Shown: positions 3,163-4,601 of the stretch, one piece after another
How the letters are laid out: every line of letters starts with the position of its first letter
How positions within the stretch are numbered: position 1 is the stretch's first letter
Assembly: GCA_050173015.1 (NCBI GenBank)
Contig: JBFXLE010000017.1
Span: forward strand, 1-64,000
Origin: Calditrichaceae bacterium
GTDB taxonomy: Bacteria > Calditrichota > Calditrichia > Calditrichales > JBFXGD01
Reading direction: 5' to 3'
DNA length: 64,000 nt
Notes under the pieces: model-generated
The model's input: the letters and a program-made list of their open reading frames with translations, nothing else
What the model was told of the DNA's origin: nothing
The model's database searches: none
Made by a program: the position numbers and the translations under genes

Positions 3163-4601
3163 TATCGCTTCCTCCTTGCCGTGACCGGCAGCGGCAGATG
3201 GAAATTTTTCCATTGGCGATTCAGAATTTCAAGGATATTCTCCTCCCATGATTCGGCCACGGACGGGCCGGCGGCGATCCATACTTCATCAAACAGGACA
3301 AAACTGATCCGTAAATCTGTCTTTTCGCTTTGAATCCGGCGGTCAATCTCAATCAGGCCGCGGTTAAATAAATCCGAAGCGCTTCCCTGAATGAGCCGGT
3401 TCATCAGTTTACCGTTATAATTTGCTTCCGAGGGATCCAGGCCGATAAACTTGCCACCAATGGTAGTAACGCCGCCCTCCGGTTTTGCCCGGTCCCGCAG
3501 CTCGGTTCTCAGCTCATCCATCGCCTCAATCAGCCGCCATAAAAAAGGTTGCGGCGTAAAGGGCGGCATAACAGAGGCGCCGTTGATGATGCCGTTCAAA
3601 TACCGCTTTATTTCTCCGCGGTCATAACGCTTCTCTTTTTGAGAACAGATCGCGGTGTAAATATCTCCACGAGGAACATCATCCAGACTTAATAGATGTT
3701 CACCGAGCAGAATGTTTAACAGGATGTTGGGTTCGATTGCCGCGTAATCATACCGCCAGATTTTATACCCATCGGGCGGCTGAATTTCTGTCATTCTTTT
3801 CTCTTCCGGCCAGGTCTGAAGTCCCGGATTGCGGTAGGTGATCCTGCCGGTCACCGTGCCCACGCGGATTTCGGGAAAAACATGCCTGCCGCTGACAATA
3901 ACACCCTGCCGGTTCAGCTTTTCAAGAACAGGTTCCAGTGCATTGTAAGGCTCCGGAATCTCCGGCCGGATTTTTAATTTCACATCCGAAGCGATTTTCG
4001 CCGTGGGAGAAAGCAGCTTTTTCACGTCATCGCCGAGCAAATCCATTTCGCTTATTTCTTTAAGCGCCTGCGCGCATTGCCGCCGGTGATAATCCGTGTT
4101 TTTTGATGGTTTTGTGCCATTTTCCAGCAGTCCGGCAATAAATTTTTTGACGCGATCATCCGCCGTTTCATCATGATAGCGCTGAATCAGCGTGTCATAT
4201 TCGGCGCGCCCATAATAAAAAATGAGCCTTTCTTCTTCGCTTTGACAATCCGATTCATGGATAACCCTGAGCAACCTGGCCCGCAGACGAAGATTTTTTT
4301 CGCGGAGTCCCTGAAAAATGACCACCCTTGCTTCACTGTCATTCAAATAGGTCGCGAGAGTATCAAAGTCCTGTAAAGCGAATAGATAGCGGAACTGTTC
4401 TTCGTTATTCAGCTTCAGCCCGTAATTTTCGATTAAATAGGCGGTTTCAAGTCGCACAGCGGGGTCATTGTCGTACAGCAGCGGAATTAACATGCGGGCT
4501 TTTTGAGAGGTTACGGAACCGGCGAGGTGATGCAGCCACTCCATTTTCTGAGAGCGGCTTTCCGTCATGCTGATCTGCTGAATCATTTCGGAAAGATTCA
4601 T
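3162..4601 (-). CDS. HEAT-like N-terminus + minimal family A (PolA-like) DNA polymerase domain, CRISPR-associated
   Basis: TGRITYRNPGLQ (cf. TGRLSSxxPNLQ), motif A DYAAIE, GDIY, motif B RGEIK..LNGIING, GGVTTIGG, NRLIQGSASD and motif C VLFDEV. N-terminal LLYDNDPAVRLETA is HEAT-like. Confidence 0.88.
   Translation of the reverse strand: MNLSEMIQQISMTESRSQKMEWLHHLAGSVTSQKARMLIPLLYDNDPAVRLETAYLIENYGLKLNNEEQFRYLFALQDFDTLATYLNDSEARVVIFQGLREKNLRLRARLLRVIHESDCQSEEERLIFYYGRAEYDTLIQRYHDETADDRVKKFIAGLLENGTKPSKNTDYHRRQCAQALKEISEMDLLGDDVKKLLSPTAKIASDVKLKIRPEIPEPYNALEPVLEKLNRQGVIVSGRHVFPEIRVGTVTGRITYRNPGLQTWPEEKRMTEIQPPDGYKIWRYDYAAIEPNILLNILLGEHLLSLDDVPRGDIYTAICSQKEKRYDRGEIKRYLNGIINGASVMPPFTPQPFLWRLIEAMDELRTELRDRAKPEGGVTTIGGKFIGLDPSEANYNGKLMNRLIQGSASDLFNRGLIEIDRRIQSEKTDLRISFVLFDEVWIAAGPSVAESWEENILEILNRQWKNFHLPLPVTARRKR

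Follow-up and report, generated by a model that had tools for sequence, protein, structure and literature searches.

The 64,000-nucleotide stretch of Calditrichaceae DNA analysed here as a whole (the window) carries, directly upstream of cas1, a gene whose 479-residue product, P0001, appears to be a catalytically intact, minimal family A polymerase with a HEAT-like domain at its N-terminus. Somewhat better than even odds (a probability of about 0.55) are given to the reading that P0001 forms the polymerase subunit within a module of four genes that acquires spacers for type III CRISPR-Cas, where it would perform short templated synthesis together with the integrase. This reading builds on the directly established anatomy and conservation of the protein, its gene linkage and its type III context, and on the finding that a clade of such enzymes exists.

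Genomic context of the polymerase gene

The features of the window considered here, all located on the minus strand, are as follows:

246..1653, minus: CRISPR array, 19 copies of a 37-nt repeat and 18 spacers
1654..1907, minus: putative leader separating cas2 from the array
1908..2213, minus: cas2 (PF09827, 4.5e-22)
2185..3162, minus: cas1 (Pfam Cas1, 2.7e-79), likely start ATG at 3162-3160
3162..4601, minus: HEAT-PolA gene (P0001), 479 aa by open reading frame and translation; N-terminal HEAT-like helical domain, linker and minimal family A polymerase core
3165..3962, minus: polymerase core, residues 214-479, palm and shortened fingers (structural and sequence alignments)
3285..3293, minus: motif C, F437-D438-E439, counterpart of Klenow H881-D882-E883
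3579..3749, minus: residues 285-341, beginning with the motif A Asp and ending with motif B / O-helix
4002..4601, minus: N-terminal HEAT-like repeat domain, residues 1-200 (structural neighbours and conserved columns)
4647..5861, minus: TPR protein (P0003); TPR families in Pfam, PADLOC TPR model PDLC01172 at 1.4e-32
7677-8735, minus: CARF/cas_NE0113, type III ancillary
8800-10536, minus: CARF-HEPN Csx1/Csm6-like, type III ancillary
10797-11912, minus: Card1/Can2-like CARF nuclease, type III ancillary
12045-12965, minus: Cas6; the ancillary stretch upstream of the module spans 7677..12965

The TAA stop codon of the polymerase gene (3164-3162) overlaps the likely ATG of cas1 as TAATG, and AGGAGG is located shortly upstream. 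The gene of P0003 is the conserved first member of a four-gene module in the order TPR-PolA-Cas1-Cas2. Collinearity of this order was seen at 12 of the 15 genome loci, and two of the remaining three are contigs too short to judge; the description of the polymerase as Cas-linked in an earlier note on this DNA is thereby borne out. At six of the collinear loci a CRISPR array accompanies the module, behind cas2 at five and upstream at one. Among the related loci, L006 and L011 have large arrays, of 78 and 47 repeats. The order TPR-PolA-Cas1-Cas2-array holds across several phyla; within the phylum, HEAT-PolA is patchily distributed (15 of 86 genomes).

Type III genes stand beside every module locus examined. 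CARF genes adjoin, Csm4 and Csm5 are located upstream at one locus (L006) and Cmr6 upstream at another (L014), and Cas10 is present in four of five related genomes. The genome that contains the window also encodes, on contig C38, a type III-D effector operon beside a second array, which shares the repeat and the leader of the window array; the copy of the leader bordering it is near-identical. The minus-strand repeat of the window array terminates in ATTGAGAC. The 38 spacers of both arrays gave no match to the rest of their own genome.

Domain organization and fold of P0001

In a Pfam search P0001 scores 48.4 bits (E 8.8e-13) against PF00476, above the curated gathering threshold of 34.3 bits, and gives weak HEAT matches in addition; judged by sequence, a chance match to family A is excluded. 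The AlphaFold2 model has a mean pLDDT of 92.2 with a low-confidence linker at residues 202-214. The model of residues 214-479 superimposes on Klenow with Z 22.5 (rmsd 2.9, 256 residues aligned), on Pol nu with Z 22.9 and on T7 DNA polymerase with Z 21.5, and Foldseek matches the P0001 model to Bst Pol I at E 2.9e-11. Thus, P0001 shares with family A (i) the PF00476 score; (ii) the palm and fingers fold; (iii) the catalytic carboxylates; (iv) the Arg and Lys of motif B, while it lacks the O-helix aromatic pair and the thumb N-terminal to the palm.

For this thumb no sequence counterpart was found in P0001 when it was aligned to the Pol I of its own genome and to other canonical PolA proteins; the alignment begins past the thumb, and the preceding 200 residues are HEAT-like. 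The coverage of PF00476 agrees in this respect: the best stretch listed for P0001 comprises profile positions 260-373, the relative P0056 is covered from position 100 of 381, and no match among P0001 and its relatives starts before about profile position 100. Directly behind motif B, in the O1 region, a deletion of 11-12 residues is seen in the alignment with canonical PolA.

The HEAT-like domain takes the place of the exonuclease and thumb regions of canonical Pol I, and it may act in a divergent thumb-like role. All ten structural neighbours listed for it are HEAT_2 clusters (TM 0.43-0.56), the similarity to the symplekin HEAT domain is weak (Z 7.3-7.7), and three homologues carry a precomputed PF13646 annotation. 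Among the conserved residues of the domain are R107 and N168/Y171-H172-R173/Q175-C176. Since the genome also encodes a normal Pol I (a 913-aa frame), the P0001 gene represents an added specialist.

Catalytic motifs and the O-helix

Residues were mapped by phmmer alignment to Klenow (chains 8oo6_A and 1d8y_A) and by MAFFT alignment with the canonical Pol I of the same genome; conservation was counted in an alignment of 37 homologues with about 29-49% identity. Motif A of P0001 reads D285-Y-A-A-I-E290 and motif B reads R328-G-E-I-K332-R-Y-L-N336-G-I-I-N340-G341. R328 and K332 correspond to Klenow R754 and K758. The earlier note had held that both O-helix aromatics are replaced by Asn, that the His of motif C is replaced by Phe, and that the steric-gate Glu of motif A is retained. 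All three observations are confirmed: N336 and N340 occupy the positions of F762 and Y766 in the alignments to Klenow and to the own Pol I, F437 aligns with H881, and E290 is the equivalent of E710. The canonical Pol I of this genome has RRKAKEINFGIMYGM as its motif B and VHDE as its motif C.

D285, E290, R328, K332, D438 and E439 are kept in all 37 homologues. Asn occupies the N336 column in 34 of 37 and the N340 column in 35 of 37, and the pair is present at 11 of 12 Cas1-linked loci, whereas the canonical PolA rows of the same table have F/L/Y and Y at the two aromatic positions. Because the Asn pair is kept across homologues only about 29-49% identical, drift, which had been allowed for as an explanation, is refuted. 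The first position of motif C is loose (F in 41 of the rows with Asn/Asn, Y in 20, H in 5), so that conservation holds for the two Asn and is only loose for the Phe. Exceptions occur in both motifs: a Cas-linked lineage (L013, P0029, P0030) carries Leu/Tyr/Asp rather than the Asn/Asn signature, motif C of L014 is Y-D-A, and the motif C Glu is absent from a few divergent relatives (P0056, P0058 and L014).

For canonical enzymes, E710 and Y766 are described in PMC3715850 as “universally conserved within A-family polymerases”, with Y766A being a mutator, and a review of Bst polymerase (PMC10520511) places the Klenow equivalents of the catalytic and DNA-contact residues of P0001 within the conserved set for substrate binding and catalysis. 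Klenow F762A with intact E710 is reported to make RNA and 2'-modified nucleic acids and to reverse-transcribe (PMC13369328). With both O-helix aromatics lost, P0001 is expected to be less choosy than Pol I with respect to fidelity, sugar and template backbone. In the light of these mutants, the low fidelity proposed earlier is a fair inference, but the accompanying statement that the enzyme is still dNTP-specific is unsafe, since F762A makes RNA despite its intact steric gate. Template-independent synthesis, likewise suggested at that stage, is disfavoured: R253 (Klenow R668) and Q405 (Klenow Q849) are present in 37 of 37 homologues and N401 (Klenow N845) is Asn in 35 of 37. The invariance of minor-groove-sensing residues argues for templated synthesis.

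Sister clade with DnaG-type primase

The Asn/Asn pair is also carried by fusions of a DnaG primase with a mini-PolA, whose motifs, K-x3-N-x3-N-G-G and FLL[FY]DE[LVIM]W, are those of the HEAT forms and whose polymerase cores score 180-235 bits against the family profile. Their N-terminus consists of a CHC2 zinc ribbon and a Toprim primase, in place of which the Cas-linked form has the HEAT-like domain. In a FastTree phylogeny the primase fusions are monophyletic (local support 100) and nest in a clade (support 96) that also contains the HEAT forms and excludes canonical PolA. The signature, on these comparisons, is not a CRISPR-specific adaptation; it is best explained as a selected trait inherited from a broader group of mini-PolA enzymes that have no thumb.

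At the single long primase-fusion locus an AAA_25 ATPase adjoins the fusion upstream, a serine recombinase follows about 3.6 kb downstream, and no cas genes were found among the ORFs scanned; this fusion is part of a mobile-element replication module. A tblastn search of phage and plasmid collections with a primase-PolA fusion returned nothing but stand-alone primases or ordinary Pol I, at less than 35% identity. In viral contigs, the family profile A1 found only distant polymerase-domain matches at nine loci (up to 34% identity), and the profile A2 only distant ones of at most 33% identity (best 80 of 342).

Proposed role and alternative explanations

In the proposed mechanism Cas1-Cas2 would make staggered integration nicks, and P0001 would extend the 3'-OH ends and fill the two repeat-length (37-nt) gaps in a template-directed manner; it would likewise copy a captured strand that is single-stranded. 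The HEAT-like domain would replace the missing exonuclease domains, thumb and O1 segment and, together with the TPR protein, would dock the polymerase on the integrase. With the Asn pair, the Tyr gating the templating base and the Phe packed against the incoming sugar would be gone, and selectivity would probably be relaxed. The fusion of the sister clade to a DnaG primase fits a primer-extending, templated enzyme. A non-homologous precedent is the group of CRISPR-associated primase-polymerases (CAPP), which are TPR-fused, operonic with Cas1-Cas2 in III-A/B and DNA-templated, and for which filling of integration gaps has been proposed (PMC8211822).

Several observations count against gap filling. 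The presence of Asn/Asn in non-CRISPR primase fusions means that the signature is not tuned to adaptation. Gap repair in most CRISPR systems is done by host polymerases and this host has a Pol I, which leaves the need for a dedicated enzyme unexplained. A thumb-less polymerase alone may bind DNA poorly, and the association with type III, as in RT-Cas1, would equally fit spacers derived from RNA. The Leu/Tyr/Asp lineage and the Y-D-A motif of L014 also count against this reading.

The first alternative, which is regarded as possible but rather unlikely, is that P0001 is the equivalent of a reverse transcriptase, converting RNA protospacers into DNA as type III RT-Cas1 does, with spacers obtained from transcripts or RNA phages. 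In the loci examined the gene is found only beside type III genes, the distribution known for RT-Cas1; the polymerase gene is directly upstream of cas1 and translationally coupled to it, and its direct neighbours are the TPR gene and cas1. RNA templates are usable by family A polymerases (PMC10520511), Klenow without the Phe762 ring is reported to reverse-transcribe natural RNA (PMC13369328), and the lack of a thumb and an O1 segment could allow an A-form hybrid to fit more easily. On the other hand, Asn/Asn is common to the primase-fused enzymes in mobile-element replication, where RNA templates are unexpected, and CAPP, the experimentally studied analogue, uses RNA templates poorly (PMC8211822). 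The F762A sections of PMC13369328 are without a wild-type comparison on RNA templates, and the 38 spacers without own-genome matches lend no protospacer or strand-bias support. A bolder version, held just as tentatively, is that a thumb-less family A core of about 260 residues without O-helix aromatics is the adaptation reverse-transcriptase equivalent of type III or, more broadly, a sugar- and template-promiscuous polymerase active only when docked on Cas1-Cas2, which would use target-primed synthesis across repeat and spacer to write spacers derived from RNA or ssDNA.

It is improbable that P0001 acts ahead of integration, turning ssDNA fragments into duplexes for Cas1-Cas2 rather than working on integration intermediates. 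Such a role is one of three that have been suggested for CAPP (PMC8211822), and the primase fusion in the sister clade points to ssDNA templates; however, a primase domain is absent from the Cas-linked form, and the tight coupling to cas1 is more in keeping with a stoichiometric partner than with an enzyme acting on its own.

Synthesis without a template, either as short 3' tails on protospacers or in the manner of the HEAT-repeat-bearing AbiK-type polymerases, is very improbable. The template-stacking Tyr is gone, and Marinomonas RT-Cas1 is reported to put short 3'-dN tails on RNA protospacers (PMC11014452), but the readers of the minor groove at the terminal base pair are kept in the proportions given above, and the sister clade is a primase fusion. 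A function outside adaptation is just as doubtful, whether as a mobile-element replication remnant travelling with cas1-cas2 or as a defence effector like the UG9-RT-associated family A polymerases. The recombinase and ATPase beside the sister clade, the patchy occurrence in the phylum and a weak match to PADLOC RTasPolA (1.9e-12, 44.8 bits) point that way, whereas the cas1-cas2-array gene order is fixed across several phyla, the RTasPolA score is not above the generic Pfam score, and the neighbours are TPR and cas1 with no reverse transcriptase. The least credible reading, in which the protein is inactive or purely structural and the Asn substitutions mark lost polymerase function, could appeal to the absent thumb, the loss of Y766 and F762 and the missing motif C Glu of three relatives (P0056, P0058, L014), but the invariance, in 37 of 37 homologues, of the steric gate, of the Arg and Lys that bind the triphosphate and of all three catalytic carboxylates is hard to explain without catalysis.

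Significance

Each CRISPR integration event needs DNA synthesis for its completion. To our knowledge, the dedicated adaptation polymerases characterised so far come from only two folds, the reverse transcriptase and the primase-polymerase. If the spacer-acquisition reading is true, family A would be a third solution, with the layout TPR, polymerase, Cas1 and Cas2, and type III systems would have recruited a polymerase of their own repeatedly. Such repeated recruitment sharpens the question of what type III needs that host enzymes do not supply.

The clade breaks the rule of Y766 universality in family A found in the literature while keeping every catalytic residue, and it offers a natural compact scaffold for testing what the O-helix aromatics contribute to the control of fidelity and to the choice of sugar and template. 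The engineering of Klenow F762A suggests that such scaffolds could serve RNA and XNA synthesis and reverse transcription. No published description of the O-helix Asn/Asn signature was found, nor any of a Cas1-linked family A polymerase in the literature except for one catalogue entry (PMC10910872). In the main text of the 2025 CRISPR classification paper (PMC12669027) the only polymerase mentioned is Cas10's polymerase/cyclase domain.

Comparison with known systems

The catalogue entry is the “(TPR + DNA polA)” cluster in row 43 of supplementary file 2 of Altae-Tran et al. 2023 (Science; PMC10910872), with a seed gene of 1,441 nt. Likened by its description, this cluster corresponds to the window in its TPR-PolA gene pair beside adaptation genes, and the seed size matches that of the P0001 gene; the window likewise has a TPR gene and a PolA gene of about 480 codons next to adaptation genes. 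The TPR and PolA association is therefore already catalogued in the 2023 survey, uncharacterised there: the text and supplements searched give the entry without motif analysis, activity or mechanism.

Canonical Pol I (Klenow, Bst) has the palm and fingers fold and the catalytic residues of motifs A, B and C in common with P0001, but it possesses 5'-3' and 3'-5' exonuclease domains, a thumb and an O1 segment, all of which P0001 lacks. The UG9-RT-associated PolA (PADLOC RTasPolA; Mestre et al. 2022, PMC9226505) resembles P0001 in size (about 475 residues), in having the polymerase core in its C-terminal half, and in its location in a defence locus next to a nucleic-acid enzyme, although its partner is the UG9 RT and that of P0001 is Cas1. 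The match is collinear (P0001 229-423 on model positions 236-424 of 475), at a score for which PADLOC has no curated cut-off. The idea that this match places P0001 in the UG9 system was rejected, as its matching relatives (13 of 15) score only 20-60 bits on RTasPolA; no UG9 RT is adjacent, the flanking genes being those of the TPR protein and Cas1.

With the adaptation polymerases RT-Cas1 and CAPP, P0001 shares operonic linkage to cas1-cas2 and an array, and the association with type III. In RT-Cas1 of types III and VI the polymerase is directly N-terminal to or upstream of Cas1, as is P0001, and spacer capture from RNA is reported; there, however, the polymerase has the reverse-transcriptase fold and is fused, whereas P0001 has a different fold and is a separate gene. 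CAPP (Zabrady et al. 2021; PMC8211822) is operonic with Cas1-Cas2 in III-A/B, as P0001 is in type III, makes DNA from dNTPs on DNA templates, and has gap filling and prespacer synthesis among its proposed roles. In CAPP_A a TPR domain precedes the polymerase, whereas here the TPR protein has a gene of its own and the polymerase bears a HEAT-like domain. No Prim-Pol model matched P0001, the six NCBIfam matches at E<=1 all being Pol I, exonuclease/polymerase or DpoZ; NF040561 (CAPP type A1) gave nothing over its cut-off in 86 genomes of the phylum, most matches being TPR noise, and a search for TPR-PrimPol (CAPP) fusions among longer relatives of P0003 yielded only generic TPR, kinase and glycosyltransferase proteins. 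In contrast to CAPP, which has the unrelated archaeo-eukaryotic primase fold and primes de novo, P0001 belongs to family A and carries no primase domain.

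Domain organization and motif residues of P0001

The polymerase P0001 matches Pfam family PF00476 at 48.4 bits (cut-off 34.3), and in its AlphaFold2 model (pLDDT 92.2) residues 214-479 superimpose on Klenow (Z 22.5, rmsd 2.9, 256 residues) and on Pol nu (Z 22.9). Homology to the family-A polymerases is secure. The model contains two confident domains separated by a low-confidence linker (residues 202-214). Residues 1-200 form an all-helical repeat with weak Pfam HEAT matches; PF13646 is precomputed for three homologues, and all ten listed ESM Atlas structural neighbours of this domain are HEAT_2 clusters (TM 0.43-0.56). 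Within it, C119, H172 and C176 are near-invariant in the homologue alignment, in the motifs “DC” and “N-x-x-Y-H-R-R-Q-C”, and may form a metal site or else a surface for interactions.

Window 3162-4601, minus strand: P0001 ORF, 479 aa (translation)
Window 4002-4601, minus strand: HEAT-like domain, residues 1-200
Window 3749-3579 exactly, minus strand: residues 285-341, motif A to motif B (translation)

The polymerase part comprises only about 265 residues. The earliest PF00476 match of P0001 and its relatives starts near profile position 100 of 381, and the MAFFT alignment with canonical enzymes begins past their thumb. Relative to these enzymes, 11-12 residues are deleted right behind motif B, at the O1 segment of Pol I, with smaller deletions ahead of motif B and a further one before the N845/Q849 helix. 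P0001 is therefore composed of a palm and trimmed fingers, and has neither exonuclease domains nor a recognisable thumb. The same genome also encodes an ordinary Pol I (contig C2, 547 bits, 913-aa frame).

Klenow numbering was assigned by phmmer against Klenow chains and by MAFFT against the canonical Pol I of the same genome, which has motif B RRKAKEINFGIMYGM and motif C VHDE. Motif A of P0001 is D285-YAAI-E290, with E290 at the steric gate E710. Motif B is R328-GEI-K332-RYL-N336-GII-N340-G341, in which R328 and K332 correspond to R754 and K758, N336 to F762 and N340 to Y766, while F437-D438-E439 occupy the positions of H881-D882-E883. The earlier note had described the two Asn of motif B, the Phe of motif C and the retained steric-gate Glu, and all these details are borne out by translation and both alignments.

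Conservation of the Asn/Asn pair

A word-indexed protein search returned 38 proteins: 37 full-length relatives (about 29-49% identity) and one ordinary PolA.

Table. Residues at P0001 positions in the alignment of 37 sequences
D285, E290, R328, K332, D438, E439: invariant, 37/37
R253 (Klenow R668), Q405 (Klenow Q849): invariant, 37/37
N401 (Klenow N845): Asn 35, Ser 2
N336 (Klenow F762): Asn 34, Leu 2, Ile 1
N340 (Klenow Y766): Asn 35, Tyr 2
Position 437 (Klenow H881): Phe 32, Tyr 5

An exhaustive family-profile search of 1.84 billion representatives gave 50 proteins at E<=1e-30, and motif positions were tabulated over 194 matched domains from 180 proteins. In this table the Asn/Asn rows carry F (41), Y (20) or H (5) in motif C, with four truncated, and rows outside the clade are mostly F/Y (35), L/Y (17) and Y/Y (13) with His. 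By these column counts and the motif table, the Asn/Asn pair is a selected hallmark of one clade; the His-to-Phe change in motif C is a looser feature. The earlier note had proposed a homologue alignment as a check against drift, and the outcome (Asn in 34/37 at N336 and 35/37 at N340) speaks for selection.

At 336/340/341, the proteins P0029 and P0030 and the polymerase of the related locus L013 carry Leu/Tyr/Asp in place of the Asn/Asn/Gly of the family; Tyr is the canonical state of the Y766 position. The L013 locus is still Cas1-linked, and these polymerases are natural comparison enzymes for the effect of the Asn pair. In another related locus, L014, motif C of the polymerase is Y-D-A.

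L013 1838-3238: Cas1-linked polymerase, Leu/Tyr/Asp form

Organization of the gene module

The polymerase is followed by cas1 (Pfam 2.7e-79), cas2, a putative leader of about 250 nt and an array of 19 37-nt repeats. Its TAA and the ATG of cas1 overlap in the sequence TAATG, preceded at a short distance by AGGAGG. Upstream of the polymerase lies the gene of a 404-aa TPR protein (Pfam), and past it a DUF4258 gene, three CARF-type genes and cas6.

Window 7269-7592: toxin-like DUF4258 gene within the cas locus, with the TPR gene on one side and the CARF genes on the other; no partner gene identified

The leader-distal end of the array bears an 83-nt direct duplication (window 1-83 and 191-273, 99% identical), both copies of which have the initial 28 nt of the CRISPR repeat as their end; the repeat copy at window 56-83 is a truncated, degenerate terminal repeat.

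The Cas linkage named by the earlier note holds beyond the adjoining cas1, cas2 and array: the order TPR-PolA-Cas1-Cas2 is collinear in 12/15 relatives (one-genome-per-species contigs). Locus L002 is a 1.6-kb contig with the polymerase alone, and L009 (2.4 kb) stops after TPR-PolA. On the Isosphaeraceae contig L015 the polymerase core lies at 8001-8674 in three shifted pieces, tblastn of the contig matched no TPR, Cas1 or Cas2, and the gene is probably a decayed copy. The array lies 3' of cas2 in five related loci (up to 78 repeats) and upstream in one. Record titles of the relatives name Calditrichia/Calditrichota, Caldisericaceae, Deferribacteres, Phycisphaerae, Cytophagia and others. Within the phylum of the window, the family occurs in 15/86 genomes (9/53 of high quality) and is missing from the sole other genome of the same genus among those 86, a patchy distribution as expected for a mobile CRISPR module.

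CRISPR type served by the module

The window starts at the end of contig C17, inside the array region. The repeat of the window array recurs on contig C38 of the same genome, in a second array (21 copies) with a near-identical leader; this second array adjoins a type III-D effector operon, consisting of a Cas10-like protein, Csx10, Csx19, Csx7-type RAMPs and a TIGR03986 RAMP. Directly upstream of the module are Csm4 and Csm5 (III-A) in L006 and Cmr6 (III-B) in L014; L001, L003, L006, L008 and L011 have a cas_NE0113 CARF gene ahead of the TPR gene, and Cas10 families are present in 4/5 related genomes. The module thus serves type III systems of several subtypes. Two more cas1 genes, on C27 (57096-57956) and C32 (3434-4114), indicate that the genome carries more than one CRISPR-Cas system.

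Just past the cas10-like gene, C38 17051-19091 holds a GreA/GreB-like gene, a dTMP-kinase-like gene and a radical-SAM gene, the last weakly matching the family of prokaryotic viperins (1.9e-06). The three could be a nucleotide-modifying accessory set.

A primase-fused sister clade

Ranking just under the full-length family in the profile search are proteins of 486-744 aa, in which the C-terminal stretch of about 250 residues matches the family profile at 180-235 bits. Ten of 22 proteins scanned with Pfam from the profile list have a CHC2 DnaG zinc ribbon and/or Toprim before the polymerase core.

Proteins P0062-P0078: DnaG-primase (CHC2 zinc ribbon + Toprim)-mini-PolA fusions with a thumb-less Asn/Asn core
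L024 7749-9911: primase-PolA fusion gene

The fusions share the motifs K-x3-N-x3-N-G-G and FLL[FY]DE[LVIM]W with the HEAT forms; P0064 and P0076 have long Pro-rich C-terminal tails. In a FastTree of 89 polymerase cores, with half of the HEAT and “other” rows omitted for speed, the fusions are monophyletic (local support 100) and join the HEAT forms, along with a few more small PolAs, in one clade (support 96) apart from the canonical enzymes, with no settled branching order inside it. At L024, the only long fusion locus obtained, an AAA_25 ATPase lies directly upstream of the fusion and a serine recombinase about 3.6 kb downstream, with no cas genes among the scanned ORFs. Judged from this single locus, the setting looks like a mobile-element replication module, and the fusion appears to be a so far undescribed replication protein of such elements, combining primase and polymerase; phage, plasmid and viral-contig collections yielded no close relatives of either form. 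The Asn/Asn signature is inherited from a wider clade and is not tuned to CRISPR.

Expected effect of the substitutions

E710 and Y766 are described as universally conserved in A-family polymerases, and Klenow Y766A, not Y766F, is a mutator (Hohlbein et al. 2013, PMC3715850). According to a review of Bst polymerase (PMC10520511), F762 has a part in sugar discrimination, Y766A/S reduce fidelity, R668- and Q849-type contacts check the terminal base pair, and RNA templates are weakly usable by family-A enzymes. With E710 intact, Klenow F762A makes DNA, RNA and several 2'-modified polymers and reverse-transcribes natural RNA using dNTPs (Zhang et al. 2026, PMC13369328).

By inference, Asn at both sites and the absent O1 segment would deprive the enzyme of its pre-insertion gate and of part of its sugar pocket; fidelity is likely to be lower, and a relaxed choice of sugar and template backbone is plausible. 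The steric-gate Glu alone does not guarantee dNTP specificity. The earlier interpretation is partly supported: the substitutions are selected and the gene is Cas-linked, but “still dNTP-specific” is unsafe, given the RNA made by F762A, and template-independent synthesis is unlikely. The invariant R253 and Q405 and near-invariant N401 argue that P0001 reads the primer-template duplex in the usual manner, and templated synthesis is also favoured by the fusion of the sister clade to primase.

Proposed role and comparison with known systems

P0001 is best read (probability roughly 0.55) as an active short-patch templated polymerase acting with Cas1-Cas2 as a gap filler. The reading builds on anatomy, conservation, linkage and type III context, from which catalytic activity, docking and substrate are predicted. 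Docking would be provided by the HEAT domain and the TPR protein, in place of the missing thumb; P0001 would fill the repeat-length gaps that staggered integration leaves behind, and would also copy the captured strand wherever it is single-stranded.

The main rival, clearly less likely, is an RT-equivalent role. In its favour are the result for F762A (PMC13369328) and the type III niche; against it speak the non-CRISPR sister clade and the primase-polymerase CAPP, which makes DNA from dNTPs on DNA templates and poor use of RNA templates (PMC8211822). What likelihood is left is divided among prespacer synthesis, untemplated tailing, a role outside adaptation, and inactivity.

The linkage of adaptation modules with DNA polymerases has been reported (Altae-Tran et al. 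2023, PMC10910872), and supplementary file 2 of that paper lists a cluster “(TPR + DNA polA)” with a 1,441-nt seed gene. The TPR-PolA association is therefore already in print as a catalogue item, past which no analysis was found in the searched text and supplementary files of the paper. A full-text literature search gave no account of the O-helix signature, HEAT domain, missing thumb or primase-fused sister clade, and neither did a term search in the main text of the CRISPR classification paper of 2025 (PMC12669027).

The closest studied analogue of P0001 is CAPP, for which gap filling, strand displacement and prespacer synthesis have been proposed; it has the same layout of TPR, polymerase, Cas1 and Cas2 in type III-A/B systems (PMC8211822). 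In contrast to P0001, its fold is that of a primase-polymerase. RT-Cas1 and CAPP occupy the same type III niche as the P0001 module. P0001 would represent a third kind of CRISPR adaptation polymerase, one of family A, and it carries a natural exception to the stated family-A invariant.
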